A stretch of 64,000 nucleotides of DNA, taken from positions 202,848 to 266,847 of the forward strand of contig LQBI01000024.1 of assembly GCA_002030045.1 (NCBI GenBank). Direction: 5' to 3'. Made by a program: the position numbers and the translations under genes. The notes under the pieces were generated by a model that did no database searches, was not told the origin of the DNA, and saw only the letters and a program-made list of their open reading frames with translations. Origin of the DNA: Candidatus Aegiribacteria sp. MLS_C (GTDB lineage Bacteria; Fermentibacterota; Fermentibacteria; Fermentibacterales; JCC-6). Positions 19,008 through 64,000 of the stretch are shown one piece after another; positions within the stretch are counted from its first letter, which is position 1, and each line of letters starts with the position of its first letter.

Positions 19008-19050
19008 GTGCGTATAAATGCTATAGACACTTAACGCTAGTGGAGGAAGA

Positions 19051-19812: not shown

Positions 19813-19821
19813 ACCGCACGG

Positions 19822-32899: not shown

Positions 32900-32985
32900 G
32901 AAGCGTATGCGAAGGGGTGCCCCGAAGGAGGGCTGAGAACAGACCCTAGGAACCTGATCTGGTTAGCACCAGCGGAGGGAGAACG
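32900..32985 (+). promoter_or_regulatory. TPP (THI-box) riboswitch in the thiC leader.
   Basis: GGGGUGCCCCGAAGGAGGGCUGAGA...ACCCUAGGAACCUGAUCUGGUUAGCACCAGCGGAGGGA matches the THI element core (CUGAGA, ACCUGAUCUGGUUAAUACCAGCGUAGGGA). Lies directly 5' of thiC. Confidence 0.85.
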
Positions 32986-32996
32986 GAAAAAGGACG

Positions 32997-34295
32997 ATGT
33001 ACACACTCATAGAAGCAGCGACTAAAGGGCAGTCGACGGATCTGGTCAGAAGAGTAGCCGAGCTGGAAGGGGTTCCGGAGGACCTGCTGGTACGTGGGCT
33101 TGCGGATGGTACACTGGTAATACCGGCAAACACCACCAGGGAGATCAGGAGACCGGTGGCCATTGGACGAGGTGTCACGGTCAAGATAAACGCCAACATA
33201 GGCAGTTCCGAGGACCTCGAGTCGATCGACAACGAGATCGAGAAGCTCATGGTAGCCGTCTCCCACGGAGCTCATACCGTGATGGACCTTTCCACCGGAC
33301 CCCGATGGCGGTCGATACTCACCAGGATACTCAAGAGGAGCCCCGTTCCCCTGGGAACGGTACCGCTTTACCAGATCTTCGGTGAAGCCATGAGAAGCGG
33401 CAGGGACGTGGCGGATGTCACCGAGGAGGAGATGTTCTCGGCGGTGGAGGACCACTGCCGTATGGGCGTCGATTACCTCACCCTGCACTGCGGAGTGACC
33501 AGGAGGGCGCTAGAACTGCTCAAGGCGCAGGGAAGGAAACTGGGTATCGTCTCCAGGGGCGGTTCTCTCCTGGCCGAGTGGATGAGCAAGAACCGCAGGG
33601 AGAACCCTTTCTACGAGCACTTCGACAGGCTTATCGAGATACTGCACGGATACGATGCAACATTCTCTCTGGGGGACGGGCTTCGGCCGGGATGCCTGGC
33701 GGATGCGTCCGACCATGCTCAGATAGAGGAGCTGATATCCCTGGGGGAACTCCAGCGCCGTTCCCACAGTGCCGGGGTCCAGGTGATGATAGAGGGTCCC
33801 GGACACGTTCCCATGGACAGGATCGAGGAAAACGTCAGGATGCAGAAGAGCCTCTGCAACGGAGCACCCTTCTACGTTCTCGGCCCCATAGTAACTGACA
33901 TAGCTCCCGGGTACGACCATATAACCTCCGCAATCGGTGGGGCCATGGCGGCATGGTTCGGCGCGGACTTCCTGTGCTACGTGACTCCCGCTGAGCATCT
34001 GAGGCTTCCCGATGCGGACGACGTCCGGGTAGGTGTTATCTCCGCCAGGATAGCGGCGCATGCCGCGGATATAGCCAGGGGTATTCCCGGCGCCAGGAAC
34101 TCCGACGACATGATGGCCGAGGCCAGGGAGAACTTCGACTGGGAGGCCCAGTACGGACTTGCAATGGATCCGGTCACCGCCCGTCGGGAAAGGGACGAGG
34201 CCCTTCCGTCGGACGGCGATGTCTGCTCCATGTGCGGACATCTGTGTGCTCTGAAGACTTCCAAGAGGGCTTTCGAGGATGATCGGGGGGAATGA
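32997..34295 (+). CDS. thiC: Phosphomethylpyrimidine synthase ThiC.
   Basis: Conserved ThiC core and a C-terminal CSMCGHLC cluster motif. Confidence 0.9.
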   Translation: MYTLIEAATKGQSTDLVRRVAELEGVPEDLLVRGLADGTLVIPANTTREIRRPVAIGRGVTVKINANIGSSEDLESIDNEIEKLMVAVSHGAHTVMDLSTGPRWRSILTRILKRSPVPLGTVPLYQIFGEAMRSGRDVADVTEEEMFSAVEDHCRMGVDYLTLHCGVTRRALELLKAQGRKLGIVSRGGSLLAEWMSKNRRENPFYEHFDRLIEILHGYDATFSLGDGLRPGCLADASDHAQIEELISLGELQRRSHSAGVQVMIEGPGHVPMDRIEENVRMQKSLCNGAPFYVLGPIVTDIAPGYDHITSAIGGAMAAWFGADFLCYVTPAEHLRLPDADDVRVGVISARIAAHAADIARGIPGARNSDDMMAEARENFDWEAQYGLAMDPVTARRERDEALPSDGDVCSMCGHLCALKTSKRAFEDDRGE

Positions 34296-41136: not shown

Positions 41137-42534
41137 TTATTTCCAGTCGTTGGATAAAACGGCTTTTATGTCGTCCCAGAGCTGGCCCATTCTGATGTCC
41201 CTCCAGAACCGCTTCCAGATGTAGGAGGGTCTGAAGTAGAACTTCCTGTGGAAAAGGGAATAGTACCTCTGTATCGTATCCCAGTCCAGGTTCTCGTGCT
41301 TCCAGACCTCCGAGGTGGAATGGAAATTGTACTTCCTCCAGTCCTCGGAGAGGATCCTTCCATCCATCTTCACCTGTCTGTAGAGGGCCGAAGAGGGGAA
41401 CGGCAGGGTCATGGAAGCCTTGGCGTAGGTCAGGGGAAGGCTCCGGGCGAAGGATATGCTCCTGTTCATGGTCTCCACCGTATCTCCCGGAAGTCCCATC
41501 ATGAAGAAACCCACGGTCTCGAGTCCCGAGGCGTGCGCCATCTCTACAGCCTGTCGAATGCGCTCCGGCGACTGCCTCTTGTTCACCCCGGCAAGTATCT
41601 CCGGCACACCGCTCTCTATTCCGAAGGAGATCTGGTAGCAGCCCGCCTCCCTAGCGAGCTTGAAGAACTCCAGGTCCACGTCCGCCACGTTGACTCCCGT
41701 GGGAAGGGCCCAGGGCGCGGGGAACTCCTCCTCGATAAGGAGCCTGCAGGTCTCCTTGGCCCTTTCGATATCGGCGGTGAAATTGTCGTCCTTGATGTGG
41801 ATGTCATTGAAGCCCAGTTCCAGCATGCGGAACATCTCGTCCACCACCCTGCGCGAGGTCTTGGACCTCACGTTATGCCCGAAGATCCTCTGACTGCAGA
41901 ATGTGCAGAAATGATTGCACCCCCTGTTGGTCTCCATGTACCCTACCGGATTCTTCCTGCTGGCTATGTGGGGCGATCTGTAGCGGCTCAGGTCGTGCAG
42001 CTGCCAGGCCGGCAGCGGAAGCGAATCGAGGTCCTCTATGAGTTCCCTGGGAGGAGTCTCGGTGTAGTCGCTCCCCCTTCCGAAGGCGATGCCCATTATG
42101 CTTCCGGGATCCTTCCCGGCGGCTATCTCCCCCAGTGTCCTCTCCCCCTCCCCCATGACGACCAGGTCGAAACCGCCCTCTTCCAGGGATTCCCTGGGAA
42201 GGCTGGTGGCATGAATGCCACCCGCCACCGTAATACAATCCGGAAGTTCCGAGTGGGCGATCCCCGCCAGTTCCGCCGCCTCGTGGAAAAGTGGAGTGGT
42301 GAAGGTGATCCCCACGATGTCGGGACGGAACTCACGAAGCAGCGCGCGGTAGGCGCCGAAGGGATCCATCTCCACCATCAGGTCCGCTATCCTGGCCTCG
42401 TGCCCGTCCCTCAGCAGCTCGCCGGCCAGAGTGGCAAGGGTGATGAAGGGAGCGCTCGTGATAGCCACCCTTATCTTGCTGCTGTAGTAGACCTCGACGG
42501 CCGACGGAGGGTTGACGAGAAGTACGCGGCTCAA
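41137..42534 (-). CDS. B12-binding domain radical SAM protein.
   Basis: N-terminal B12-binding Rossmann region. CNHFCTFCS is a CxxxCxxC radical SAM motif. Confidence 0.75.
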   Translation of the reverse strand: MSRVLLVNPPSAVEVYYSSKIRVAITSAPFITLATLAGELLRDGHEARIADLMVEMDPFGAYRALLREFRPDIVGITFTTPLFHEAAELAGIAHSELPDCITVAGGIHATSLPRESLEEGGFDLVVMGEGERTLGEIAAGKDPGSIMGIAFGRGSDYTETPPRELIEDLDSLPLPAWQLHDLSRYRSPHIASRKNPVGYMETNRGCNHFCTFCSQRIFGHNVRSKTSRRVVDEMFRMLELGFNDIHIKDDNFTADIERAKETCRLLIEEEFPAPWALPTGVNVADVDLEFFKLAREAGCYQISFGIESGVPEILAGVNKRQSPERIRQAVEMAHASGLETVGFFMMGLPGDTVETMNRSISFARSLPLTYAKASMTLPFPSSALYRQVKMDGRILSEDWRKYNFHSTSEVWKHENLDWDTIQRYYSLFHRKFYFRPSYIWKRFWRDIRMGQLWDDIKAVLSNDWK

Positions 42535-42559
42535 CTGGCCTCCATGACGATGATGCGCA

Positions 42560-43936
42560 TCAGACCCTCCTGGCCTTGATCAGTGTTCTCCTGATGTTCC
42601 TGGGTCCCAGTGCGGTCCTGAGGGTCCGGAAAACCCTCGACGGGTGAAGGTAGAACCTCCAGAAAGCCCGCTTTTTCAGCCTCTCTATCTCCGAGGGCCG
42701 GAAGCCCTCCAGCTGGTAGACCGACCTCTGGAAGCAGTCGAACTCGGTGTAGTCCTCCCTGACAAGATGCTTCGTCCTCTCCCACAGCTCGGTGTGAGGA
42801 AAAGGGGTCGTTATGTCGAATACGGCATCGTCGAAGGGTTCCCTGGTGGCGAACCTGATAGTCTCCTCCATCTCCTCCCTGGTCTCTCCCGGAGCCCCGA
42901 GCATGAAGTAGCCCTGCACCCTGATACCCCTTTCCCTGGCCATTGCCAGGGCTCGCCTGACCCCCTCGACCGTTATTCCCTTGTCGTAAATGTCGTCCAG
43001 AACTCTCTGTGAGGCGGATTCCACTCCCATGTTGATCTTTGCCAGTCCGGCCTCCACCATGTGGTCCAGCAGGTCCTCCTTCAGCAGGTCGGCTCTCACG
43101 TTGCAGCACCACCTGAGTCCCAGGCCGCTTCCCGTGAGTCCGTCACATACCGTGTGCACCCATTCGGCGTCCACTATGAAGGTGGAGTCCTCGAACATGA
43201 ACGCATCTATTGAATAATCCGCCACCAGGGCTTCGAGTTCGGAGATGATGGAGGAAGCCGTCCTCTTCCGCATCCTCTTGCCGAAGATCTCGCTCAGGGT
43301 GGGCTGGCAGAAGGTGCAGGTGAACGGACACCCCCTGGTGGCCATGACCGACGTGCCCCTGAGATCGGGGTCAACCCTGTCCATGGAGTACCAGGTGGAG
43401 AAGTACTTCTCCATGTCGAATACCGAACGGTCCGGGAGGGGAAGCGTGTCAAGGTCCTCGGTAAGCAGGAGACCCGGAGCCCTGTGCAGCTTCCCGTCGC
43501 GAATCATGCTGAATCCGGGTATCCTCGAGGGATCCTCCCCGTCAAGGAGCCTGGCCCATGCCATCTCGGCCTCCCCGGAATAGACCAGGTCGGCCCCGGT
43601 CCTGGCCAGCGTGTCCTCCGGCAGGACAGTGGCGTGGGGTCCTCCGGCGATCAGCAGGACTTCAGGGAGCACATCCCTGCATATCGAAGCCGCCGCGGAC
43701 GCATCCGCCAGCTGAGGGGTCATGAGGGAAATGCCCACGGTATCCGGTCTGTAGTTCGCGAGCTCCCGTCTCATCTCCCTGAAGGGATCCTTCATGAAGG
43801 ACATGTCGAATACCCTGACATCCCTGCCCCTCTGACGGGACACCGCCGCCAGCATGCCCAGCCCTATGGGCGGCTGTCCGGACGGGTACCGTGTCTCCGG
43901 GAAAACAAAGAGGATTCTCTCCATTGCTCTGCTCAT
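42560..43936 (-). CDS. B12-binding domain radical SAM protein (second, tandem).
   Basis: CPFTCTFCQ motif. AAGGAGAG RBS before the Met of MSRAMERILF. The upstream part of ORF 42560..44236 is an over-extension. Confidence 0.7.
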   Translation of the reverse strand: MSRAMERILFVFPETRYPSGQPPIGLGMLAAVSRQRGRDVRVFDMSFMKDPFREMRRELANYRPDTVGISLMTPQLADASAAASICRDVLPEVLLIAGGPHATVLPEDTLARTGADLVYSGEAEMAWARLLDGEDPSRIPGFSMIRDGKLHRAPGLLLTEDLDTLPLPDRSVFDMEKYFSTWYSMDRVDPDLRGTSVMATRGCPFTCTFCQPTLSEIFGKRMRKRTASSIISELEALVADYSIDAFMFEDSTFIVDAEWVHTVCDGLTGSGLGLRWCCNVRADLLKEDLLDHMVEAGLAKINMGVESASQRVLDDIYDKGITVEGVRRALAMARERGIRVQGYFMLGAPGETREEMEETIRFATREPFDDAVFDITTPFPHTELWERTKHLVREDYTEFDCFQRSVYQLEGFRPSEIERLKKRAFWRFYLHPSRVFRTLRTALGPRNIRRTLIKARRV

Positions 43937-44281
43937 CAGGGTGACTCTCCTTAGATGGCTCGAGGATCCCGCAGCCAGCGATGGTGGATGATAGGAGAAG
44001 CCGGTACCGCAAGTCAAGCTGGAACCGGGAATTCCCGGCAGCAGGGGGGCCTGGGTCCTGAACAGCGTCCAGCCGGCGAACTGCGGGAAGAACTGCCGAC
44101 CGCTGCCCCATGGCCTGGCTGATGTCTCCGATATCTTCCTTCTGCATCGAGCCGTCCCGTATCGGGCAGCTTCCATGCTTCCGTGCCGACGGTCCTTTCC
44201 CGTGCGCCGTACTGAGGATGGACCGGCACTGTTCATTCATTCGATTCACGCCCTGAATGGAGGGCGAAGGGTCTCAGCAGG

Positions 44282-44806
44282 TCATTCCTCGGGTCTACCG
44301 ACGTCCCTGAGTTCGTGGATCGACCTTTTCAGCTCTCTCATGAGCCTCCGTATCTCGTACCTCTGCCGCAGGTCGCTGTCGTCGGCAAGGAGGCTCAGGG
44401 TAGAATCGGCATGCTTGAGCCTGTCCGAGAGCATCCCTGCCAGAGTGCAGCCCACGTGTATAGCCAGATCCGGATCACTCCTGTGAAGCTCCCTGAAGGA
44501 CTCCCTGCTCATCACGTACAGCTCTCCCGGAGCCACGCAGGTGACCGTGGCCGACCTTATGCCGCTCTTGAAGAAAGCCATCTCACCGAAGACGTCGCCT
44601 GATCCCAGGGCCGCCAGGACGAATTCCTCCCCCTTCGAGTCGCTGACCACGAAACGGCCGCTCCTGATCACGTAGAGGTCGTTGCTGAACGAACCCTGGT
44701 CGATTATCACCTCCTGCTCTTCCGTCGTACGGAATTCACAGGCATCTACGAAGTTCTTCTCCTTCAGGAAGTCCACCGGCTTGAACAGATTGTCTTCGCG
44801 GTCCAT
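44282..44806 (-). CDS. Cyclic-nucleotide-binding domain protein.
   Basis: cNMP-binding signature GSGDVFGEMAFF...RSATV. Confidence 0.7.
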   Translation of the reverse strand: MDREDNLFKPVDFLKEKNFVDACEFRTTEEQEVIIDQGSFSNDLYVIRSGRFVVSDSKGEEFVLAALGSGDVFGEMAFFKSGIRSATVTCVAPGELYVMSRESFRELHRSDPDLAIHVGCTLAGMLSDRLKHADSTLSLLADDSDLRQRYEIRRLMRELKRSIHELRDVGRPEE

Positions 44807-44822
44807 GCAGCAGTCCTTTCAG

Positions 44823-45353
44823 CTATTCTATCCTGTCCATCCTGGCGAAAACGGGTGGAGCCTTCACCGAATGGTCACGGGCATCTATTCTTCGGGACAG
44901 TATCCCAACCATCTCCTCCACGGCGCGGGAGACTTCCGGTGAGAGACCTTCCCCGAGAATTTCAGGCATTTCTATGGTCACTCCCCAGATGCTCCACTCC
45001 AGGTCATTCAGGCCCCGGAGTTCCGAGAGGTGTCCTACTACCGTGGGCAGGTCCATGTGATGAAGCGAGGCCGGGTACGCCCTGAGGGCGCTGTTCCTGC
45101 CCAGTTCGACCAGCATCCCCGAGGGTCTGCCGGCCACGGCGTCCAGGAAGATGAACCTGCCGCTCAGGGGGAGGAGTTCCCAGAGTTCCAGGGGATCGGT
45201 CTCCAGGCTGTGGATGAACACATCTCCCCTGTCACCGTGCATCTCCCTCAACCGTGCCGCAGCAACGTTCCCCGCGCCGTCGTCACCGGCAAGTGTATTG
45301 CCTACTCCAACGATGCAGAGGTCGTACCTCCCCTCCCGGGCACGCGGACCCAT
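44823..45353 (-). CDS. [NiFe] hydrogenase maturation endopeptidase (HycI/HyaD/FrhD family).
   Basis: CIVGVGNTLAGDDGAGNVAAARL motif. TAATG overlap with the upstream gene. Confidence 0.75.
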   Translation of the reverse strand: MGPRAREGRYDLCIVGVGNTLAGDDGAGNVAAARLREMHGDRGDVFIHSLETDPLELWELLPLSGRFIFLDAVAGRPSGMLVELGRNSALRAYPASLHHMDLPTVVGHLSELRGLNDLEWSIWGVTIEMPEILGEGLSPEVSRAVEEMVGILSRRIDARDHSVKAPPVFARMDRIE

Positions 45354-46075
45354 TATTTCGTGTACACCTCGACCTTGTAGGTACACTGGCTGTCGCCCGG
45401 AATCGACTCCTTGAGCTTCAGACGAGCGCTGCCCATCTTTCCCAGGTATCCGGCCAGGTAGTTGTAGAAGAGTACGCACAGGTCTCCGCCCAGCTCTATG
45501 CCCTCCTCCTTGCAGAGTTCCCTTATGAAACACGTCCCGACCTTGATGTCCAGTCCCGATGAACCGTCATAGTCCGGTTTCAGGTCCCATGCGGGAGCGA
45601 ACTGCTTCACCGCCATGTCCAGGGCTTCCTGGAAATCCTCGGGGACCCTGTACCTCGGAAGCTGCGTCGCCAGTGTCATTCCGGCCATGGTGCCCACAGC
45701 CGGAAGACTGCCACCCAGTGTCTGCCTGAAGACGGACGCCACGGAAAGGAGCCTAATTCCCAGGTCCTCCAGTGCGGCTTTCCTGTGCTCGTCGTCCGAT
45801 GGAGCGTGAAGCAGCGGGATATCAATCCCCAGCCTGGAGGCCAGGCGTATGTTCTCCTCGTCATGGTAGTGGTCCTCGGAGTGGACGATGTCCTCGTGGG
45901 TTATGGCCGATGCCGGGCAGATCTGGCTGCAGCTCAGACATCCGAAGCACTCCTTCTCCCTCACGACCCTGGGGATACGTTTCTCCTCGTCGAACTCGAA
46001 GACGTCGGTGGGACATTCGTCGACGCAGAGAGAGCATCCGACGCAAGCTTCCTCGTCGATCGCTATCCTGATCAT
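45353..46075 (-). CDS. 2x[4Fe-4S] ferredoxin domain fused to a V4R-like domain; putative hydrogenase electron-transfer subunit.
   Basis: CVGCSLCVDECP and CFGCLSCSQICP. C-terminal GGDLCVLFYNYLAGYLG is V4R-like. ATGA overlap with the large-subunit stop. Confidence 0.55.
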   Translation of the reverse strand: MIRIAIDEEACVGCSLCVDECPTDVFEFDEEKRIPRVVREKECFGCLSCSQICPASAITHEDIVHSEDHYHDEENIRLASRLGIDIPLLHAPSDDEHRKAALEDLGIRLLSVASVFRQTLGGSLPAVGTMAGMTLATQLPRYRVPEDFQEALDMAVKQFAPAWDLKPDYDGSSGLDIKVGTCFIRELCKEEGIELGGDLCVLFYNYLAGYLGKMGSARLKLKESIPGDSQCTYKVEVYTK

Positions 46076-47487
46076 CCCTCTGCCCCCCTTCTCACGGTAC
46101 TGAAGACCTTCCCGTCCTTTCTGAACTCCAGCTCCATCGGCATGCAGCCGGCGGCGTGGGTGGCGCAGGCAAGACAGGGATCGAAACACCTGAGGGCGAA
46201 CTCCGCACTGTTCATGATGAGGTTCTCGTCCCCGGTCGGTTTGTAGTGCTTCGCAAGCGCCGTGATGGCATGATCGATTGCGTCGTAGTTGTTCTGAGTG
46301 GCGACGATGAGGTTGGCAGACAGTATCTTTCCATTGTCGTCAGCCTCGTAGTCGTGTATCAGGACTCCCCTGGGCGCTTCGATCATTCCGGTGAAACGGC
46401 CTCCTCCGGGCCCGGCTTCCACCCTTATGGGGCCGTCGCCGAGTTCGCTTCCGCAGATATCGGCGATTCTCTCTGCACAGTACATCATCTCTATCAGCCT
46501 CGCCCTGAGGTAGTCTATCGCCGAGAGCCTCGGGCTTCCGCCGGCCTTGAACTCCTCCAGGAGCCTGTCCGCTTCGGGCGTCGAGAAGTGTTCGTTGACG
46601 TTGAGCCTGGCCAGCGGACCAACGAAGTACTTCTTCTCCTCGCTCCCCGCCTTCAGCCTGACGGAGCGCATGTAGGAGCCCTGCATGGGGTGCTCGACCA
46701 GGTTGTCCGCGTACTCCACTGCGGTGAAGGTCCTCTCCTCTTTCCCGGAGGGATCCACCACCCTGCAGACGTTCTCCATGAAGGTCACCCTGCCTCCGTC
46801 GGTGAGGGCCATGGAATGGAAGGGTACCTCGGCGACCTCGTTTATTTCAGCGATGTTCTCCAGTTTCTTCAGCAGGACGTCGGACAGCTCCTTGATCAGA
46901 CCGGCAGCCTCTACGCCCCACTGGCCCATCTTCACAACCTCTTCCGACTCCGGTCTGGAAGCCTGTCCCCCAGGGACCGAGGTGACCGGGTGCACACCCC
47001 TGCCGCCAACTATCTCAACGGTCTTCTGGCCGATGCTCCTGAGGCGCAGGATCTTCTTGACTATCTCCGGTGCCATTTTCAGAAGGGCAAGAACGTTGCG
47101 GTCCTGGGGTTTCGCCCCGATGCCCACCAGCACGTCGGGTCCAGTCAGAACGAAGGTGCTCAGCGAGTGGGAATGGAGTATGTGACCCATGTACATAAGC
47201 TCCCGCAGAAGTTTTGCATCGGCGGGGACCTTCACTCCCAGACCGTTCTCGATGGAGGTCACCGAGACAAGGTGGTGGGCGGCGGGACAGACTCCGCAGA
47301 TTCGGCCGGTTATCAGGGGGAGTTTGAACAGTTCCATACCCTCCAGGAGCTTCTCGAACCCGCGGATCTCAAGCACCTGCAGGTGGCCGCTCGTGATACC
47401 GCCGGAATCGTTCACGTCCAGCACTATCTTCGCGTGACCCTCTATCCTGGTCACCGGATCCACGTAGATCTTCTCTTTCATCATCAA
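46072..47487 (-). CDS. [NiFe] hydrogenase large subunit (cytoplasmic, group-3-like).
   Basis: N-terminal RIEGH and RICGVCPAAH. C-terminal DPCLACATH followed by a cleavable tail. Confidence 0.9.
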   Translation of the reverse strand: MMMKEKIYVDPVTRIEGHAKIVLDVNDSGGITSGHLQVLEIRGFEKLLEGMELFKLPLITGRICGVCPAAHHLVSVTSIENGLGVKVPADAKLLRELMYMGHILHSHSLSTFVLTGPDVLVGIGAKPQDRNVLALLKMAPEIVKKILRLRSIGQKTVEIVGGRGVHPVTSVPGGQASRPESEEVVKMGQWGVEAAGLIKELSDVLLKKLENIAEINEVAEVPFHSMALTDGGRVTFMENVCRVVDPSGKEERTFTAVEYADNLVEHPMQGSYMRSVRLKAGSEEKKYFVGPLARLNVNEHFSTPEADRLLEEFKAGGSPRLSAIDYLRARLIEMMYCAERIADICGSELGDGPIRVEAGPGGGRFTGMIEAPRGVLIHDYEADDNGKILSANLIVATQNNYDAIDHAITALAKHYKPTGDENLIMNSAEFALRCFDPCLACATHAAGCMPMELEFRKDGKVFSTVRRGAEG

Positions 47488-47518
47488 CCTCTTAATCCAA
47501 ACCCCGTTGTCAGACGGT

Positions 47519-48430
47519 TCACTTCCCGGCCCATTCCCTCATCTCCACGGTAGGCTTCTTGTAGATGACGGGAGACGATAGAGCATAGGCGTAGAAAGTC
47601 TTTGCTTCGCTCTCCATGTAGTCGATGATCTCCTGCTGGTCTATTCCGGTGAGCAGGTTCATCCTCCTGGCGATCATCGTCCTTATATCCAGATGGGGTT
47701 CGGTTATCAGGTCGACCGATGGGCCCGCACAGCCGGCGCAGGCCACTCCCTTGTTGGGACACTGGGCCTGGCAGCGGTCGAGTGTCACGGAACCCAGGCA
47801 GACCACACCCTGGCTCAGAAGGCATACATCCTCTTCGAGCGCCACGGAGACGCCTCTCTGGAGTTTGACACCCTCCCTCTTCTCCATTCTCCGCCTGCAC
47901 GCGGAGCAGACGGTCCTGGCCTTCAACTCCGGTGCCTTGGCTCCGATCAGCGTCTTGAGAGCAAGCGCTATATAGTAGGGATGAGGGGGACAGCCGGGTA
48001 CGTAGAAATCGACGTCCACCGCCTCGTCGATGGGGATGACGCTCTGCTCGAGTTCCGGGGCTCCCTCGGGCATGGCGCCGTCCCTGGAGGCTGTGACGGT
48101 GCCCTTGTAGATCTTGTCCAGAATCACACCCTTGCGGTAGAGCCAGCCGATCCCCGACGGGCCTCCATAGACCGCACAGGTTCCGAAGGCCACCAGCTTC
48201 TTGCAGCTCTCCCTCATCTTCATCAGACAGTGCCTGTCGTGTTCGCTCCTTACGGCGCCCTCGACTATTCCCACGTCGGCTTCGGGATAACCCTTCTCGT
48301 CCATCAGGACGGGTATTCTGACGAACTCGACATCCTCCACGAGATTGAGGAGTTTCTCATGCAGGTCCACCATGGCAACATGGCAGCCCGAGCACCCCGA
48401 CAGCCACTCGGTCGATATCCTGGTTTTCAT
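47519..48430 (-). CDS. [NiFe] hydrogenase small subunit.
   Basis: N-terminal LSGCSGCH proximal-cluster motif. GCPP and C-terminal Cys clusters (CQAQCPNKGVACAGC). ATGA overlap with the upstream gene. The longer ORF 47519..48817 is an over-extension. Confidence 0.85.
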   Translation of the reverse strand: MKTRISTEWLSGCSGCHVAMVDLHEKLLNLVEDVEFVRIPVLMDEKGYPEADVGIVEGAVRSEHDRHCLMKMRESCKKLVAFGTCAVYGGPSGIGWLYRKGVILDKIYKGTVTASRDGAMPEGAPELEQSVIPIDEAVDVDFYVPGCPPHPYYIALALKTLIGAKAPELKARTVCSACRRRMEKREGVKLQRGVSVALEEDVCLLSQGVVCLGSVTLDRCQAQCPNKGVACAGCAGPSVDLITEPHLDIRTMIARRMNLLTGIDQQEIIDYMESEAKTFYAYALSSPVIYKKPTVEMREWAGK

Positions 48431-48915
48431 CCTTTGTCCTCCAGTATCATTTCCTTCAGGCATGCGTTGGGTCCGGCATGAAGGATCTCCAGATGGACTT
48501 TCTTGTCGGGCATGACCTTCTCCATGGCGCCCGCGAAGACGCCGTGGGCCATGTAGCAGAGTGATTCCTTCTGTTCGTGGGCGTAGCGGAACAGAGCGTT
48601 CCTGACCATGCAGGTATTGAATGTGAGGCGCATCACCTCTGTCCCGTCCCTGTTCTCGATCAGCTGGTCCCGCTCGCCCTTGAACGGCCGGAAGTCCCAG
48701 ACTATGCCCCGCTTCTCCAGCGCCTGCCTCAGCAGCTCGACCGCCTTGACCGGATCGTCGGTATGCTGAACGTCCTGCACCGCCTCCCGGCCGAACTTCT
48801 TGCCGGCCAGCATGCATATTGAATGGCTGCTCTGGCCCAGGTTCTTCTCCGAAGCGTGCGCCAGCGCACCCAGCAGATATGCCACTCCGTGAAGCCGATC
48901 CAGCATTTCTGCCAT
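48427..48915 (-). CDS. V4R-domain (COG1719-like predicted hydrocarbon-binding) protein.
   Basis: 162 aa. LCYMAHGVFAGAMEKV V4R-like CxxxxGxxxG pattern. First gene of the hydrogenase string. Confidence 0.45.
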   Translation of the reverse strand: MAEMLDRLHGVAYLLGALAHASEKNLGQSSHSICMLAGKKFGREAVQDVQHTDDPVKAVELLRQALEKRGIVWDFRPFKGERDQLIENRDGTEVMRLTFNTCMVRNALFRYAHEQKESLCYMAHGVFAGAMEKVMPDKKVHLEILHAGPNACLKEMILEDKG

Positions 48916-48953
48916 GTCGCCCTCCTAATCTGTTGTCCCTGAAAGGACGCCCG

Positions 48954-50453
48954 TCAAGGCCGAAGAGCCTTCATGGCCGATTCGAGCTTTCCCTGGTTCA
49001 GGAAATCCAGGGCGTTCCTCAGTTTTTCTATCTCCTTCGAATCGGTCCTCTTCTGCTGCAGCTGCTCTATCCGGTCGGCGACTGCCAGCTTCAGGGTCTC
49101 TATCTGGTTCTCCACCGACTGGGCGGACTCCACCATGGAACGGTACTTCTGGGTACCGGCCGCCGCCCCTCCCCCCCCTGTCTGTCCTGTCTCCTCCTCG
49201 AAGATGTGTTCGTCCGGTATCTCCGGAGGTTCCCGGCGGTCCTCGAGGTCCATGGCCGGCATGCGAGCATCTGTCCGGTCCCGCTGCGTCTCAGCGACGT
49301 CCTCGGTTCCCGGTTCCGCAGTTACGGTTTCCTCGGGTTCCTGCGGCGAAGCATCCGGCAGAACGGTTACGACCGGCTCCTCGGGTATAACCGCGGCATC
49401 CTCCTCATAACCCCCGGATGCTCCCCCGCGGTTCTCCTCGTCTATGTCGACAACGATGTAAGGCGTGTGTGTGACGGAGGCGTGCTCGATCTCGGGAGCC
49501 TCGTGCACGTTAAGCTCCGAGGCTTTGGGCCGCGGCTGGTCCCTCCTGCTCACCTGCATGAAGTTAAGTATATCCTTCACTATCTCGAGAGTTACTTCGT
49601 GGCCGGGTCCCAGCATCTGGGCCAGGACCATCCTTCCCGCAGCCTTCAGCTGCCTGACGTTCAGCTTCACGTTGGTCGCGATGTATTCGATTATCTCATC
49701 GTCAGTCTTTATCCCCGTCTGACTGAAAAGATTGCTCAGTATCTCCTTCCTGCCCTCCAGGTTCACTGTCTCCAGCTTGATCACCAGACCCGAAGTGAGC
49801 CTCGAGTAGAAAGAGGCGTCTATGTCCAGCAGTTCGCCGGGATGGACGTCGGACGAGGTGATGATGCCGTGTTTCCCCCTGGGCATCCTGTTGATCACGG
49901 AAATGATGAACTTCTGGAACATCATGTCTCCCTGGGAGAACTGGATGTCATCGAGAAGAAGCAGGTCGAAGGTGGTTATCCAGTCCCGGAGTTCCCTTTC
50001 TATGCCGGCTTTCAGGCACTGCTGGTACTCGATGTGCAGGTCGACGGTGTTGAGGATGAGGGTACGTTTGTGCGTAGCCCTGGAGATAGCGGCCAGGAGA
50101 TGCGTCTTCCCCTGCCCGGTATTCGCGTGCAGCATGACCGGAGTAATACTCTTCCAGACCCTGGGAATAAGTGCGATGGTGCGTGCTATCTCGGTGGCGT
50201 AGTAGTTCTCTTCGGTGGTCACGTAGTTGTTGAAGGTCATGTCCTCGGGGTAGGTGCTGACCAGGGTGGCCGCGAAGTCGTCGGTGCTGTGGAGCTGCTT
50301 TCCGGTCAGCCTTGGTACCGCCCCCACACCGCCTATTGCCTTGGCGAAGTTTATGATCTCCCTGGCCACCTCCTCCCCTACGAGTCCCGAATCCGAACAG
50401 ATCTCCAGGAATTCCTCGAAGTGCAATTCACTGAGGTGGTCCAGTTCCTTCAT
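48954..50453 (-). CDS. DnaA-like AAA+ ATPase lacking the DnaA-box-binding domain IV; acidic/coiled-coil C-terminal tail.
   Basis: TFNNYVTTEENYYATEIARTIAL, Walker A ANTGQGKTHLL, LLLDDIQF (Walker B), FYSRLTSGL (sensor/box VII). No HTH domain IV. C-terminus EEDAAVIPEEP...coiled coil. Confidence 0.65.
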   Translation of the reverse strand: MKELDHLSELHFEEFLEICSDSGLVGEEVAREIINFAKAIGGVGAVPRLTGKQLHSTDDFAATLVSTYPEDMTFNNYVTTEENYYATEIARTIALIPRVWKSITPVMLHANTGQGKTHLLAAISRATHKRTLILNTVDLHIEYQQCLKAGIERELRDWITTFDLLLLDDIQFSQGDMMFQKFIISVINRMPRGKHGIITSSDVHPGELLDIDASFYSRLTSGLVIKLETVNLEGRKEILSNLFSQTGIKTDDEIIEYIATNVKLNVRQLKAAGRMVLAQMLGPGHEVTLEIVKDILNFMQVSRRDQPRPKASELNVHEAPEIEHASVTHTPYIVVDIDEENRGGASGGYEEDAAVIPEEPVVTVLPDASPQEPEETVTAEPGTEDVAETQRDRTDARMPAMDLEDRREPPEIPDEHIFEEETGQTGGGGAAAGTQKYRSMVESAQSVENQIETLKLAVADRIEQLQQKRTDSKEIEKLRNALDFLNQGKLESAMKALRP

Positions 50454-50467
50454 AGCCTCTACATCCG

Positions 50468-51160
50468 TTACTCTCCGCCAAGTTCACGTGTTATCCTGCC
50501 CAGCACCATGGAAAGTCTTCCCAGCTTGATCTCGGGTCCGGTGGCGATCACCACGGTCTTCTCCGTATCGATCCCGGCTATGGCGAGGGAGACGCTGTCA
50601 CCCTCGATGAAAGCCTTGCCCGTAAGACCTCCCGGATACTCCGCCACGAATCCCTTTACGGAGCCCATGAAAGGCTCCAGCATCTGCATGAATCTCTCAT
50701 CGACCCCGGACCTGGCAAGGAGCTGTCCTTCAGGGGTCATCATGCATATGTAACCTATGCCGGGAATGGTTCCCAGGAGCTGGTCCAGTTTCGAGGACAG
50801 CACCCTGTCGATCTCGACGGAGAGACCGGCAGAGCTTGCAACGCCATCCTTCTTCCTCTCGTCGCGTTCCTTCAGGGCCCACATCAGTATATGGTGGAGG
50901 TCCTCCTGAATACTTGTCTCATCGGGTTCTATACCGGATTCGAAACTGAACTGGCCCTCGCTCCAGTCGACTATGTCCACCAGCACGTCACGGCCCTTCT
51001 TCTTGCCGTAACGGGCATGGATGAGTTCGCCCTTTCGGTAGAAGAACTCGGCCTTGCCATCGATGGATATGACCGTGAGCAACCCCGTCTTGCGGCTGGA
51101 ATTGGGGAACTGCAGGAGGGAGACGAAGCCGATGTCGCTCAGTGTCCCGTTAATGGGCAT
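50468..51160 (-). CDS. DUF4388 (PatA-N-like) domain fused to a roadblock/LC7-like domain.
   Basis: N-terminal GTLSDIGFVSLLQFPNSSRKTGLLTV...GELIHARYG. The C-terminal half has a roadblock-like fold pattern. Confidence 0.55.
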   Translation of the reverse strand: MPINGTLSDIGFVSLLQFPNSSRKTGLLTVISIDGKAEFFYRKGELIHARYGKKKGRDVLVDIVDWSEGQFSFESGIEPDETSIQEDLHHILMWALKERDERKKDGVASSAGLSVEIDRVLSSKLDQLLGTIPGIGYICMMTPEGQLLARSGVDERFMQMLEPFMGSVKGFVAEYPGGLTGKAFIEGDSVSLAIAGIDTEKTVVIATGPEIKLGRLSMVLGRITRELGGE

Positions 51161-51170
51161 TCAGTTCCTC

Positions 51171-51755
51171 TCAAAGTATTCGAAAACGGTTGATTATCTC
51201 CTTGCTTATCAGCTGAAGGGTCCTCATTACGCCTCTGCCCTCGGTGGCTATGGACTCAGTGACCGGTATGCCCTCGATGCCGAGTTCCTTCTCGAGGATC
51301 CCCAGTCTAAGCCTGGGATTGCAGTCCCTCTTGTTGTACTGCAGCACTACCGGGAAACCGTCGGGGTCGATTCCGTGGCTTACCAGGTTCTCGTTCATCA
51401 GCCTGTACATCTGGATGTTATCCTCGAGGCACTCGACCCTGGAATCGGCCACGAAGACGATGCCATCGGCTCCCTCGAGGATGATCCTCCTGCTGGCCTC
51501 GTAGTATATCTGCCCGGGTATGGTGTACAGGTGGAACTTGAGGGAGTAGCCCTGAACCGTCCCGAGGGATACCGGAAAGAAATCAAAGAAGAGCGTCCTT
51601 TCCTTCTCTGTGTCCAGCACCAGCATATCACCCTTGTACCTGTCCGTCAGCGTCCTGTGTATGAACAGAAGGTTCGTCGTCTTGCCGCTCATGCCCGGAC
51701 CGAAGTACACTATCTTGAAGACGATCTGCTTCTCAGCCGGATCCAGATGAGGCAT
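51171..51755 (-). CDS. mglA: MglA-like Ras-superfamily small GTPase.
   Basis: KIVYFGPGMSGKTTNL (P-loop), LYTIPGQIYY (switch II), DGIVFVADS, LQYNKRD (NKxD). Confidence 0.8.
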   Translation of the reverse strand: MPHLDPAEKQIVFKIVYFGPGMSGKTTNLLFIHRTLTDRYKGDMLVLDTEKERTLFFDFFPVSLGTVQGYSLKFHLYTIPGQIYYEASRRIILEGADGIVFVADSRVECLEDNIQMYRLMNENLVSHGIDPDGFPVVLQYNKRDCNPRLRLGILEKELGIEGIPVTESIATEGRGVMRTLQLISKEIINRFRIL

Positions 51756-52245
51756 CGTCCTCTTCACCAACCACGAAGATCCTGTCGATCAGGTTGAGAG
51801 CGTACTCCCGGAACTCGGGCACCGAAAGATCCTCCGCGTCCTCCTTCCTGGTCCTTTCCCTGTTCTCCAGTATCCTCAACAGGTCCGGTACTATGGACCT
51901 GGCCTCGTGTCTCACCCTGCCGATCCTTGTGTAGTCCTCGAAGACCACCACCATCATGTACCTCTGGCCGATGAGGGAGATGTGAATGTGCCTCTTCTCG
52001 CCCTGCTGAAGAAGTATCGAGAACTGCTCCTCGCCTACTATGTTAGCCACTTCCCGGGTTGCAGCGAACATCCCAGCCACCAGGGCGGCCAGGGCGGTGG
52101 AGTTGAGGCTCTCGGTGCTTCCGGCCTTGCCAACGCACATGCCTTCCCTGCTGATGAGAAGCGCCGTGACTGCCTCGGACCGCTCCACCAGACTGGACAG
52201 CAGTGTCGTGAGAGCCTGTGCATTACCGCTTCCGGGTAACTGCAT
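51733..52245 (-). CDS. Roadblock/LC7 domain protein (MglB-like).
   Basis: VTALLISREGMCVGKAG...MMVVVF roadblock pattern. Confidence 0.6.
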   Translation of the reverse strand: MQLPGSGNAQALTTLLSSLVERSEAVTALLISREGMCVGKAGSTESLNSTALAALVAGMFAATREVANIVGEEQFSILLQQGEKRHIHISLIGQRYMMVVVFEDYTRIGRVRHEARSIVPDLLRILENRERTRKEDAEDLSVPEFREYALNLIDRIFVVGEEDDASSGSG

Positions 52246-52268
52246 TCGATCCTCTCTCGTTCTTTCGA

Positions 52269-52625
52269 TCAGAGGGCGGCTTCGAGCTTGGGTACGCTTC
52301 TCCTGACCTGAAGACGGATACCGCCGAGGTTCGCGTCCTTGACGGCCACGATGGCCAGCAGTGCGTCCCGGCCGAGTGCCGTCATCATGACTATTCCACC
52401 CTTGTACTCCATCATGGCCTGGTCCATCTCCTCCAGACCCAGTTCACGTCCCACGCTCTCGGCGGAACCCATGCCGGTGGACACCATAGCGCCGATAGCC
52501 TCGGTGTCGGAGGATCCCGCGGAGGCCGCATCGATGACAAATCCATCACGGCCGACGCATACGGCCACATCTATGCCGCTCACCTCGACGAGTCCTTCAA
52601 GGATCTTGTGGAGTTCTTCCATTTT
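52269..52625 (-). CDS. Roadblock/LC7 domain protein (MglB-like), second copy.
   Basis: GIDVAVCVGRDGFVIDAAS...ALLAIVAV. AAAGGAAG RBS before the Met of MEELHK. Confidence 0.6.
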   Translation of the reverse strand, partial: KMEELHKILEGLVEVSGIDVAVCVGRDGFVIDAASAGSSDTEAIGAMVSTGMGSAESVGRELGLEEMDQAMMEYKGGIVMMTALGRDALLAIVAVKDANLGGIRLQVRRSVPKLEAAL

Positions 52626-53011
52626 GCTTCCTTTCCGTAGTTGTACCGAGCAAGCCTGCTCTGTAAGAGAACCTTTCGTACATTCCACAATTCAGTGTAC
52701 ATATTCTTCACAGCCGGGGGTTGAATGTCCAGTGCCTCCAGCAGCCCGATTGAAGCGCCCGGGCAGTCGGTGTACCCAATTCGGGGTCTAGCCTTCTCCC
52801 TTTTCCTGAGTATAGTAATGAAAGCTGAGAATGAATCTCGAAGCAGCGCTGAAACGACAGGAGGCTTATTTACGTACAAATTCCCGAACAGCAGTATGAT
52901 GCGCTTTTCAGGGAGTTTGCGCCGGAATAATCGATTCATGTTGTTTGAAGAGCAGGCAAGCGCCTGCGCAGGACCGTTCCCGGTACACCAGCTGAATATG
53001 GAGGTTGCAGC

Positions 53012-53452
53012 ATGGCTCTTACCATTATACTCGCGTTACTGGTCTCCTCTCCCGGTGAGGGAACCTTTGAACTCGGCGGAATACTGGGTGAACCCTCCGG
53101 CATCTCGCTGAAGTACTGGCTGGGAAGCCACACCGCATTCGACGGCGCCGTTTCCTGGTCCCTCAGGGATGACCGCGGCGACGACTTATATCTGCACGGT
53201 GACTTCCTGTGGCACGATTTCGGTATCATCGAGGACGAGAGCGGCGACGTGCCTCTCTTCTACGGGATCGGCGGAAGGGTAATACTCGATGAGGACGATA
53301 CCAGGCTGGGAGCCCGTTTCCCGGTGGGGTTCTCCTGGCTTCTGGGAGGAGCGCCGCTGGACTTCTTCGTGGAGATAGCCGGGGTCATCGATCTGGTACC
53401 CGACATGGATTTCGACGTTAACGGCGGCATAGGGATCAGGTACGTCTTCTGA
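53012..53452 (+). CDS. Small outer-membrane beta-barrel protein (OmpW/opacity-like).
   Basis: Signal peptide. Alternating beta pattern. C-terminal ...GIGIRYVF. Confidence 0.45.
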   Translation: MALTIILALLVSSPGEGTFELGGILGEPSGISLKYWLGSHTAFDGAVSWSLRDDRGDDLYLHGDFLWHDFGIIEDESGDVPLFYGIGGRVILDEDDTRLGARFPVGFSWLLGGAPLDFFVEIAGVIDLVPDMDFDVNGGIGIRYVF

Positions 53453-53471
53453 GACCGGCTGGCCGATGCGG

Positions 53472-53987
53472 TCAGGTTAGGTCCCTGAGACCCACGCTCA
53501 GAATCGAGGCCAGTTCCTCCGCCACCCGAAGTGCCTCCTCCCTGCTTCCAAGACGGGCGACGCTGAGGGTGGAGGCGGGAGAAACCGCCAGGATCCGGTA
53601 GACTATCCCGGCGAACGAGCCCGATGCGGCAGGGGAGCCGGGACCGTGCAGTTCCAGCCGCTCAACATCGGCGGTGCTGAGTTCGCCTTCACTCGATCTC
53701 AGGGTCCCCCCCATGTAATCAACGCTCACGGTGCCTGACCCGGAGAACCTCTTCCTGAGCAGGACTATCAGAAGAACGTCCATCGGCAGGACCATGAAGA
53801 GGATCACGGGTACGATGTATATCTGTTCGGTGTTCCCGGACCTTCTCATCAGAAGATAGATCACCGCCGCTATGGCGATGGTGATGAAGGCGGAGAACAC
53901 CAGTGCGAAGGTTACGATCCTGCCAGTCCTGGAGGCAGAGGCCGGTCTGTAGACATATTGTCCGCCGTTTTCGGCGAAATACCTCAT
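53472..53987 (-). CDS. Hypothetical membrane protein.
   Basis: Two TM helices. Confidence 0.35.
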   Translation of the reverse strand: MRYFAENGGQYVYRPASASRTGRIVTFALVFSAFITIAIAAVIYLLMRRSGNTEQIYIVPVILFMVLPMDVLLIVLLRKRFSGSGTVSVDYMGGTLRSSEGELSTADVERLELHGPGSPAASGSFAGIVYRILAVSPASTLSVARLGSREEALRVAEELASILSVGLRDLT

Positions 53988-62759: not shown

Positions 62760-63809
62760 TCAGCAGATCCTCGGAAGCTGCTCCCCGCTTATCATGTCCA
62801 CGATCCTGTCCGATCCTATGAGGCTCCTCATGATGACTCCGGAGCCGGTCCGGGGTCCGACGCTGCCTATCCTGCAGGCCCCCTTCCCGTCATCGTGGTT
62901 CTTCAGGATCTCGACGGCCCTGTCAGCATGCTCCTGCGGAAGGAAGGTCACGAATCGGCCCTCGTTGGGCACGTAGAGTGGATCGAACCCCAGCAGCTCG
63001 CAGGCCCCCGCAACCTGTTCGGTGACCGGAATGGAGGCCTCGTCAATGAACACGGTCAGGCCCGCCTGATCGGCGATCTCGTTCAGTCCGCTGGCAAGTC
63101 CGCCCCTGGTCAGGTCCCTCATGCAGTGGATATCCAGGCCTTCCCGAAGGAGTCCCGACACCATGCCCGAAAGGGGAGCAAGGTCGCTGTTCACCGGTAT
63201 TTCCAGACCTATCCCTTCCCTGGCGGCCATTATGGCCATGCCGTGCCTTCCGATGTCCCCGCTGAGTATCACCGCATCCCCGTCCCTCAAGGAGGATGGA
63301 TGGATGCTGAGCCCTTCCGGCACTATCCCCACGCCAGAGGTGTTGATGAAGATTCCGTCGCCCTTTCCTCTGTCCACGACCTTCGTATCGCCGGTCACGA
63401 TCTGAACGCCCGCGCGTGCGGCAGCTTCGGCCATGGAGCGGATCACACGCCAGAGGTCCTCCATTGAGAAACCTTCCTCTATTATCAGACCTGCGGAAAG
63501 CCAGAGGGGTCTGGCCCCGCACATTGCGAGGTCGTTCACGGTGCCGTACACGGAAAGGGAACCGATGTCGCCGCCGGGAAAGAACAGGGGCGTGACCACA
63601 TGGGAATCAGTGGCGAAGGCCAGGGTGCCTCCGTCAAGCTCCATGACCGCTCCGTCGTGCCTCCGGTCCAGAAAGCTGTTGGAAAACGTACCGATGATCA
63701 TGCGGTCGATCAGCTGGTTCATGAGCCTTCCGCCGCCTCCGTGCGCCATGGTTACCTTCGGATAATCGGAGATCGGTATCGGACATGCCATATCGTTCAA
63801 TTCAGTCAT
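62760..63809 (-). CDS. hypE: Hydrogenase maturation factor HypE.
   Basis: AIR-synthase-like fold. C-terminal ...GEQLPRIC (PRIC end). GGAGG RBS before MTELND. Confidence 0.85.
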
Positions 63810-64000
63810 CTTTCCAACCTCCAGGTCTGTACCGGTAGTAGGCTGCACAGGCCCCCTCCGAGGAGACCATCGGCGCTCCGAGCGGATGCTCCGGTGTACA
63901 CTCCGTACCGAAAGCGGGACACTGATCGGGTTTTATTACACCTCTCAGGACCTTGCCGGAAAGACACCTGCCGGATTCCTCGACCCTCATGTGGTCGACA
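63802..64000 (-). CDS. hypD: Hydrogenase maturation factor HypD. Partial: the 5' end lies beyond the window.
   Basis: C-terminal [31 protein letters not shown] matches the HypD C-terminal CxxC...CTPExP region. Confidence 0.75.

Follow-up and report, generated by a model that had tools for sequence, protein, structure and literature searches.

A conserved five-gene [NiFe] hydrogenase module with V4R-fold partner proteins and signaling neighbors in Candidatus Aegiribacteria

The hydrogenase and its two V4R-fold proteins

The genome of Candidatus Aegiribacteria sp. MLS_C (Fermentibacterota) encodes a compact [NiFe] hydrogenase module, which we analyzed within a 64,000-nucleotide (nt) stretch of contig LQBI01000024.1 (positions 202,848 to 266,847), referred to here as the window. 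The module lies on the minus strand throughout and comprises five genes. In order of transcription these encode a 162-amino-acid (aa) protein of V4R/Bet3 fold (V4R162, 48427..48915), which is a candidate dedicated hydrogenase subunit; an MvhG-type small subunit of 303 aa (47519..48430); an MvhA-like large subunit of 470 aa (46072..47484); a 240-aa fusion of a 2x[4Fe-4S] ferredoxin to an ATC_hydrolase-like domain of V4R/Bet3 fold (FdV4R, 45353..46075); and a hydrogenase maturation endopeptidase of 176 aa (44823..45353; TIGR00072, 71 bits versus a cutoff of 47). An initial annotation of this DNA described the hydrogenase as partnered only with the two V4R-like proteins, which was too narrow: the protease gene lies in the same interval, and signaling genes adjoin it. 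Its statement that all junctions overlap holds for three (ATGA, ATGA, and TAATG) but not for the small-to-large junction, where the genes are separated by 31 nt that include an AAGAGG ribosome-binding site. Of the hypDE pair that it placed 14 kb away, a hypE-type gene with AIRS and AIRS_C domains was identified at 62760-63848.

The large subunit carries the motifs RIEGH, RICGVC, and DPCLACATH. It matches Pfam NiFeSe_Hases (91.8 bits) and NCBIfam VhuA (304 bits versus a cutoff of 800), and its best relatives of solved structure are MvhA (5odc_F, 303 bits), then HydABCSL (7t2r, 293 bits), with 5xf9 in fifth place (242 bits). All of its nearest relatives belong to group 3. The Ni-Fe ligands C63, C66, C437, C440, and H443 are kept in 93-99% of family sequences (n=69). 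Following DPCLACATH, the protein continues for 27 residues past H443; this extension is predicted to be removed by the operon's own protease. The tail resembles that of HydABCSL past its last His. Specifically, HAAGCMPMELEFRKDGKVFSTV (46072-46152) aligns with the Acetomicrobium HydL tail HAVGKMPLKLELVGPTGEILKEV as deposited (PDB 7t2r_D), so, beyond being a cleavage tag, the extension may itself be a conserved element.

The small subunit matches Pfam Oxidored_q6 (93 bits) and NCBIfam VhuG (214 bits versus a cutoff of 450). It aligns along its length with MvhG (5odc_E, 241 bits) and has ligands for three Fe-S clusters; 12 of its Cys are conserved among 78 sequences. No twin-arginine leader was seen by eye in its translated N-terminus (MKTRISTEWLSGCSGCH), to which a signal-peptide tool was not applied, and no transmembrane (TM) segments were identified in any core module protein. 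By its sequence, the enzyme is a group-3-like, soluble (cytosolic), Mvh-like [NiFe] hydrogenase, and the genes of the module lie where the initial annotation had placed them. The HydDB class of the large subunit would probably be 3c, and its homologs carry the Joint Genome Institute (JGI) name 'F420-non-reducing hydrogenase large subunit'.

For the two accessory proteins, the initial assignment as V4R-like does not extend to membership in Pfam V4R (PF02830). The match of V4R162 is not significant (E = 0.096; 13.2 bits versus a gathering threshold, GA, of 31), only 14 of 40 of its homologs give matches, all weak (best E = 0.015), and the fusion has no match. The C-terminal domain of the fusion instead matches ATC_hydrolase (PF14196) below threshold, at 23.5-25.2 bits versus a GA of 28.1, with E <= 0.01 in 29 of 40 fusion homologs (best 1.5e-6). 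These sub-threshold scores indicate a related but distinct family. Searches with V4R162, as a single sequence or as a 40-sequence profile, identified no relatives in the PDB, and neither accessory protein has a recognizable catalytic motif.

At the level of fold the assignment stands. The AlphaFold model of V4R162 has a predicted local distance difference test (pLDDT) score of 86, and its top Foldseek matches are PoxR, MopR, DmpR, and Bet3/TRAPP (E = 1.5e-5 to 1e-3; TM scores of 0.5-0.6). The model of the fusion C-terminal domain matches TPC6/Bet3, YslB, BcsD, MopR, PoxR, and H-NOX (E = 4e-4 and weaker). On these models, both proteins are predicted to adopt a V4R/Bet3/H-NOX-like two-layer alpha/beta fold, and the term V4R-like is used here at fold level only. 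The best structural matches of both are the V4R domains of PoxR/MopR/DmpR and Bet3/TRAPPC3, with Cys in the Zn-binding region. Unlike PoxR, MopR, and DmpR, the proteins described here show no significant sequence match to V4R, have no AAA+ or DNA-binding output domain, and in one copy are fused to a ferredoxin. V4R is the ligand-sensing domain of PoxR/MopR. Proteins of the Bet3, Roadblock, and longin types regulate GTPases, and Bet3 partners Roadblock/longin proteins on small GTPases (PMC10933270). Roadblock and GTPase genes also adjoin the present module (see below).

In the ferredoxin domain of the fusion all eight Cys of the two [4Fe-4S] motifs are invariant, and the closest likeness is to the polyferredoxin MvhB and to the ferredoxin domains of HdrA. 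Invariant residues of V4R162 include C102, C120, C152, H113, and H124, and those of the fusion C-terminal domain include C182, C188, C200, and C231. The alignment by hhalign puts the two V4R domains in register, with Cys102/120/152 opposite Cys182/200/231, and hidden Markov models (HMMs) of the two domains built from the locus set described below cross-match at ~1e-6. From this register and these cross-matches we conclude that the domains are paralogs. In the predicted models the invariant Cys, and in V4R162 His as well, occupy the end of one strand, the beginning of a helix, and the final strand. Structural Zn that ties the beta-sheet to a helix is reported at Cys sites of PoxR and of Thor (Asgard) TRAPPC3 (PMC10933270), and by analogy structural Zn is the most likely occupant here, in preference to an Fe-S cluster.

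Homologs of V4R162 number 308, of which the best 120 are 62-91% identical to it. Some carry the JGI name 'predicted hydrocarbon binding protein', and the initial annotation had likewise raised hydrocarbon binding, an idea that gained no support. FdV4R has 268 homologs, and the full-length ones among the matches listed are ~240 aa.

Conservation, phylogeny, and missing partners

We identified the module in ~75 sources, all of them metagenome-assembled genomes (MAGs) or metagenome contigs. A scan with one genome per species recovered 71 loci, all from MAGs. The sources span at least six phyla: Fermentibacterota (the lineage of the window), Acidobacteriota, Desulfobacterota, Fibrobacterota/Chitinispirillaceae, Eisenbacteria, and Methylomirabilota. 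The order V4R162-small-large-FdV4R-protease is found in essentially every source with enough DNA, and V4R162 adjoins the small-subunit gene in every locus. The association of V4R genes with this hydrogenase clade, raised by the initial annotation as a matter for survey, proved general, with both V4R162 and FdV4R in essentially every source; the protease is kept in 65 of 75. Identity to the window proteins across phyla is 59-69% for V4R162, 58-65% for the small subunit, 54-58% for the large subunit, 52-56% for the fusion, and 36-42% for the protease. By this measure, the conservation of V4R162 equals or exceeds that of the catalytic subunits. Clustering of open reading frames (ORFs) from the ~75 sources revealed no other conserved family within +/-10 kb beyond the signaling neighbors.

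The initial annotation also reported that a diaphorase, MvhD, or Hdr partner is missing, and this was borne out at a wider scale. Pfam or NCBIfam scans of ~45 ORFs of the window turned up no diaphorase, MvhD, or Hdr genes. When the FlpD of a more distant relative (L083) was used as a phmmer query against all ORFs of the ~80 V4R-type loci, no MvhD was detected even at E = 10. Gene-family clustering of the ~75 sources revealed no Hdr or diaphorase gene conserved across related loci.

These absences set the module apart from its closest solved relatives. For both subunits these are the group 3c MvhAGD (Vhu/Mvh) enzymes, which occur with HdrABC (PDB 5odc, 9sw2, and 9sfi). The present enzyme shares with MvhAGD the three-cluster small subunit, the Ni-Fe ligands, the C-terminal processing site, and the cytoplasmic location. 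Unlike MvhAGD, it occurs without MvhD (FlpD) or Hdr genes, and its partners are the ferredoxin-V4R fusion and a V4R-fold protein. HydABCSL (7t2r) and the NAD-reducing group 3d enzyme (5xf9) have a short small subunit (~180 aa) and flavoprotein partners of the NuoE/F/G type, neither of which is found here.

In an exhaustive search of 1.8 billion representatives, the family formed a single 50%-identity cluster (P0241, 660 bits). The next large-subunit matches (P0242-P0245) are 46-41% identical, and below these is a continuum at the level of Mvh. A V4R162 homolog is encoded upstream of the hydrogenase in the contexts of P0242, P0243, P0244/P0410, P0245, and P0254 (E = 1e-39 to 1e-55). The same sister-clade contexts keep the ferredoxin and the V4R-like domain, either fused or as two adjacent genes. 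Further out the partners are of other types: P0247 (L080) has NuoE/F/G-type partners and a short small subunit, and P0256 (L083) has MvhD (FlpD) beside the small subunit.

The initial annotation had also called for a phylogeny. We built a neighbor-joining tree of the large subunits together with PDB references, and 100 of 100 bootstraps recovered the core family as monophyletic. The superclade of V4R-type enzymes forms a separate group 3 clade in 183 of 200, apart from the MvhD-type and diaphorase-type relatives. The tree gives little indication of where within group 3 this superclade belongs, as a sister relationship to the Mvh references appears in 4 of 200 bootstraps and placement relative to 3c and 3d in 3-4 of 200. 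Judged from these sequences, the large subunits appear to form their own, previously uncharacterized clade within group 3, with fixed V4R-fold partners.

A divergent group 3 clade near 3c/3d, with a small subunit and no recognized electron-transfer partners, has been described from Anaerolineae as 'group 3e' (bioRxiv 10.1101/2021.08.23.457424). That clade was reported as limited to Anaerolineae and partnerless, whereas the present one is found in six or more phyla, with V4R, ferredoxin, and Roadblock as its conserved partners; the two were compared by description only. The context figure for 'group 3e' lists an FGE-sulfatase gene, and one sister-clade locus (L077) has such a gene as well. 'Group 3e' may overlap one of the sister clades.

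Signaling neighbors

Five genes lie directly upstream of the module in the window, on the same strand and separated by gaps of 11-39 nt or overlapping. The outermost encodes a Roadblock/LC7 protein (Robl139, 117 aa from ATG; 52269..52622; Pfam Robl_LC7, 59.7 bits). A Roadblock homolog is the most widespread neighbor, found in 61 of 75 sources (the set used for the Roadblock, PATAN, and MglA counts) and mostly located directly upstream on the same strand. Cross-phylum identity is 32-48%; a homolog search with this protein returned 68 matches, all at least 53% identical, and reached only relatives at the level of Fermentibacteria. Many of these matches lie on contigs whose lengths are also found among the V4R162 matches. 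The next gene encodes an MglB-like Roadblock protein of 170 aa (51733..52245; Robl_LC7, 34 bits) that matches NCBIfam MglB NF052242 at E = 7e-17 (62 bits, below the cutoff of 200). A second Roadblock gene of this kind occurs in 35 of the 75 sources.

Overlapping the MglB-like gene is a gene for an MglA-family Ras-like GTPase (51171..51770), which aligns over its full length with Thermus MglA (3t12_A, 194 bits). Its translation includes the P-loop GPGMSGKT, TIPGQ (TxPGQ in place of DxxGQ), and NKRD, and MglA is present in 27-28 sources. As judged from motifs and homology, the window carries the genes of an MglA/MglB-type switch, in the form of a canonical MglA and an adjacent Roadblock-fold protein. 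Closer to the module is a PATAN (DUF4388/PatA_N) protein (50468..51160; DUF4388, 66.9 bits), whose gene occurs in 49 of 75 sources.

The last upstream gene encodes a DnaA/Hda-like AAA+ ATPase with a long acidic C-terminal tail (48954..50453; Pfam Bac_DnaA, 80.7 bits). It scores below the cutoff of NCBIfam DnaA (154 bits) and lacks the DNA-binding region of DnaA. Its insertion between the PATAN and hydrogenase genes is seen in 24 sources, all Fermentibacteria, and a 38-nt spacer with an AGGAGG site separates it from V4R162.

The hydrogenase module and the upstream mglB-mglA cluster are probably in one operon. A sigma-70-like promoter match (TGGACA-17-AAGAAT; 52703..52731, minus strand) is the sole match in 44000-53500 and lies just upstream of the first Roadblock gene. 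One site was found where 3.0 are expected by chance, and the promoter/terminator scan as a whole was not above chance, so the match is weak evidence alone and only its position is suggestive. We regard it as the candidate start of an operon of 10-11 genes.

Downstream of the protease, on the same strand, is a gene for a stand-alone cyclic-nucleotide-binding protein with no DNA-binding domain (44282..44806; Pfam cNMP_binding, 71.9 bits), found in 12 Aegiribacteria-type loci, all close relatives. Beyond it are two B12-binding radical SAM genes (41137-44236, minus strand) that are paralogous and 31% identical to each other. We considered these as parts of the module and rejected them, as their conservation does not reach beyond close Aegiribacteria relatives, where their distance from the module varies. 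A link to the two radical SAM genes upstream of the hydrogenase in L077 was also rejected, because no match to L077 was obtained at E <= 1e-5.

Other lineages pair the module with different signaling genes. In a Desulfuromonadales MAG (L061), a histidine kinase and then a REC-PATAN-Roadblock fusion are encoded directly upstream of V4R162, and in a Holophaga MAG (L065) a REC-PATAN-Roadblock fusion lies directly downstream of the protease. REC-PATAN proteins adjoin Roadblock genes in Geobacter-type loci, and a histidine kinase immediately follows the protease in a Hyd24-12 MAG (L018). In one sister clade (L075/L076) a soluble chemoreceptor starts 2 nt past the protease end; it has no TM segment and no Pfam-recognized sensor domain, only HAMP_2 and MCPsignal. 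Ser/Thr kinases are found in L077, L081, and L064/L067/L068, in sister clades together with Roadblock, and another sister locus (L078) encodes an FHA-GAF-HD protein. One further sister clade has PATAN, Roadblock, an Arf-like GTPase, a response regulator, and a PAS kinase.

Two other features of the upstream region recur within particular lineages. In Thermoanaerobaculia the motif TTGATAC.AGTTCCCATTCTCA is located ~100 nt upstream of the V4R162 start (L037, L040, L042, L045, L046, L048, L051, L055, L072, and others) and is a possible promoter or operator with a long leader after it. In 15 sources with Acidobacteriota-type loci (L001, L002/L055, L035-L037, L040, L041, L045-L048, L051, L072, and L074), genes for a ParA/MinD-like ATPase and an unannotated protein of ~185 aa are conserved ~2-4 kb upstream on the opposite strand, diverging from the PATAN-Roadblock-hydrogenase genes. 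The ParA/MinD-like neighbor hints at a positioning system.

Possible roles of the module

Our tentative reading, which we put a little short of an even call, is that this is a signaling-linked hydrogenase that probably senses H2 or redox state, and its basis is the gene neighborhood. An unchanging core flanked by signal-output genes of many kinds is what would be expected of a sensory input module, which favors signaling-linked sensing. The sensory roles of group 2b [NiFe] and group C [FeFe] hydrogenases were inferred from a comparable neighborhood pattern. In addition, V4R is a known sensor fold, and Bet3, which descends from it in eukaryotes, acts together with Roadblock/longin proteins on small GTPases; this also favors sensing. 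The initial annotation had suggested sensory or regulatory coupling from the V4R-like proteins. That suggestion gains from the linkage across phyla to Roadblock, PATAN, MglA, kinase, chemoreceptor, and response-regulator genes; the linkage is one of neighborhood, and the signal may flow in either direction. It is possible, though we think it doubtful, that the module represents a new class of H2 sensor, in which a group 3 enzyme reports via V4R to Roadblock and MglA and, elsewhere, to kinases or a chemoreceptor.

Under the sensing interpretation, the large subunit would split H2 or equilibrate with it, and electrons would pass through the three [4Fe-4S] clusters of the small subunit to the cluster pair of the ferredoxin domain. 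The V4R domain of FdV4R and V4R162 could then read the redox state of this cluster wire; the two probably form a heterodimer, as V4R and Bet3 proteins do, with their Cys most likely holding structural Zn. By protein contact the signal would reach Roadblock partners, such as the MglB/MglC-like and REC-PATAN-Roadblock proteins; in other lineages its recipients would be kinases or a soluble chemoreceptor. The Roadblock partners may in turn set the MglA GTPase or other outputs, and so affect motility, polarity, or gene expression.

Several observations weigh against a sensory role. The function is read through guilt by association only. All catalytic features of a working hydrogenase are kept, together with a C-terminal extension and a dedicated protease, whereas the known sensor hydrogenases of group 2b lack both the extension and a protease of their own. 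A five-cluster wire ending in a ferredoxin domain would equally fit a metabolic enzyme with a soluble acceptor. If the three or four invariant V4R Cys bound Fe-S, an electron-transfer role would be favored. The N-terminal position of the receiver in REC-PATAN-Roadblock proteins suggests that signals may run from kinase to Roadblock, with the hydrogenase as the target. Four Sabulitectum loci (L026 and L032-L034) have no Roadblock, PATAN, or MglA within 8-10 kb upstream. In Thermoanaerobaculia a 169-nt spacer with the conserved promoter-like motif noted above separates Roadblock from V4R162, so the Roadblock and hydrogenase genes need not be co-transcribed there.

One rival explanation is a metabolic soluble hydrogenase, either a bidirectional H2:ferredoxin enzyme or one with a small acceptor, in which electrons leave or enter through the ferredoxin domain, the V4R proteins are structural or bind a substrate or cofactor and the signaling neighbors are unrelated or only control expression. 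The full catalytic and Fe-S ligand sets and the extension with its protease fit such an enzyme, as does the likeness of the ferredoxin domain to MvhB and HdrA above all. A catalytic or cofactor site would be in keeping with the high conservation of V4R162, in which many polar residues are invariant, and the Sabulitectum loci show the module without signaling neighbors. Fermentibacteria have been described as H2-cycling fermenters with cytosolic hydrogenases (PMC5030696). However, a conserved metabolic partner or acceptor gene was found in none of the ~80 loci, whereas diverse signaling genes recur beside the module in every phylum and sister clade sampled. In several cases these genes show apparent operon continuity with the module, such as the chemoreceptor 2 nt past the protease and the REC-PATAN-Roadblock gene directly upstream of V4R162, and V4R is known as a sensor or protein-interaction domain, not a redox domain. 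We consider a purely metabolic role unlikely. Similarly unlikely, in our judgment, is an enzyme under signal control, in which a kinase/response-regulator/MglAB switch binds the V4R proteins via Roadblock and toggles or localizes the hydrogenase. The domain order of the fusions, with the receiver N-terminal and Roadblock at the C-terminal output position, and the histidine kinase just upstream in L061 point in this direction. So do the partnering of Roadblock and Bet3 folds in eukaryotic GTPase-regulator complexes and the MglAB and ParA-like neighbors, which are positioning or polarity systems. Against this, we know of no precedent for post-translational control of a hydrogenase by a dedicated GTPase/response-regulator module, the metabolic acceptor of the enzyme is left unnamed, and a soluble chemoreceptor without a Pfam-recognized sensor domain in the same operon fits better with the hydrogenase as its input.

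Two other explanations concern the V4R-fold proteins themselves. They could be maturation or assembly chaperones, comparable to HyaE/HyaF or the HoxL type, and lie outside the working enzyme. They are small proteins encoded in a hydrogenase operon together with a protease and have no recognizable catalytic motif, as might be expected of chaperones. However, one of the two is joined to a two-cluster ferredoxin, or in sister clades its gene directly follows that of a stand-alone ferredoxin, and this speaks for electron transfer in the mature enzyme. The conservation of V4R162 is also higher than that of the catalytic subunit and far higher than that of the protease (59-69% versus 36-42%), which is unusual for a chaperone, and we regard this role as improbable. 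Alternatively, the enzyme may be an ordinary group 3c hydrogenase with its MvhD and HdrABC encoded elsewhere in the genome, the V4R-like genes being incidental. MvhA and MvhG are the best sequence matches, homologs carry the F420-non-reducing label, and our view of this genome is 64 kb. Yet the V4R partners are invariably there and MvhD is found in none of the ~80 loci, while the true MvhD-type relative L083 has FlpD beside its small subunit. The clade is also apart from the Mvh/Vhu references (183 of 200 bootstraps), and the VhuA and VhuG scores of 304 and 214 bits are far under the cutoffs of 800 and 450. Because the alternative V4R partners are strictly conserved, we think it highly improbable that the usual partners are simply encoded elsewhere.

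If the module is a sensor, the nearest parallel is group 2b, in which HoxBC/HupUV acts with the kinase HoxJ and the regulator HoxA. The proposed way of working is alike, with a soluble hydrogenase read by a neighboring signaling protein, and in several loci histidine kinases and response regulators adjoin the present module. Unlike group 2b, the enzyme is of the group 3 lineage and has a C-terminal extension and a protease. The proposed transducer is V4R plus Roadblock, not a PAS-domain kinase, and the outputs include the MglA GTPase, Ser/Thr kinases, and a chemoreceptor. The module would thus be a functional analog of HoxBC-HoxJ and not a family member. In our search of the literature, none of the V4R, ATC-hydrolase-like, Roadblock, and MglA proteins had been connected with a hydrogenase, and the Fermentibacteria literature mentions generic cytosolic hydrogenases only (PMC5030696).

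Implications and other features of the window

The roles of hydrogenases are usually read from their partner subunits, and the partners of this widespread clade are in no scheme. Automatic annotation labels the enzyme 'F420-non-reducing hydrogenase' or 'Ni/Fe hydrogenase subunit alpha'. With partners unrecognized and such labels in use, metabolic reconstructions that count an Mvh-type or bidirectional enzyme may mis-assign H2 fluxes. What appears to be new is a group 3 [NiFe] subgroup with new partner subunits and a probable new signaling role. If the signaling role is correct, it would add to group 2b [NiFe] and group C [FeFe] a third kind of H2 sensing that arose independently, and the first tied to a Ras-like GTPase polarity switch. 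H2-guided motility or polarity control in anaerobes could follow, and H2-directed behavior of sediment and digester anaerobes would be testable. It would also place a bacterial Bet3-fold protein, Roadblock, and a small GTPase under the input of a redox enzyme, a combination otherwise known from eukaryotic TRAPP/Ragulator. The genomic linkage in bacteria of V4R (the Bet3 ancestor), Roadblock, and a small GTPase bears on the origin of the eukaryotic GTPase-regulator complexes. If the enzyme is instead metabolic, the V4R-ferredoxin subunit would be a new electron-transfer or substrate module of hydrogenases.

Elsewhere in the window, a low-GC island at 16000-24700 (0.43-0.49 versus ~0.60 elsewhere) was probably acquired horizontally. 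Its genes include one for an N6/N4 DNA methylase fused to an inactive restriction-endonuclease domain, one that is restriction-endonuclease-like, a HicA/HicB toxin-antitoxin pair, and one for an FG-GAP protein bearing a Por secretion tail. At 28307-29576, an IS256/Mutator-family transposase is broken up into two or more ORFs (Pfam Transposase_mut positions 251-378 and 50-130) and has the look of a decayed insertion sequence. A thiamine pyrophosphate (TPP) riboswitch (RF00059, 61.7 bits; 32903-32999, plus strand) is located directly before thiC (32997-34295; ThiC_Rad_SAM, 617 bits), an ordinary arrangement. Two large secreted proteins (12306-15926 and 20294-22147, both on the plus strand) have CHU_C / Por_Secre_tail sorting domains, which suggest that the organism probably has a type IX secretion system (T9SS). 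T9SS is associated with gliding motility in Bacteroidota, and could be relevant to the MglA link.

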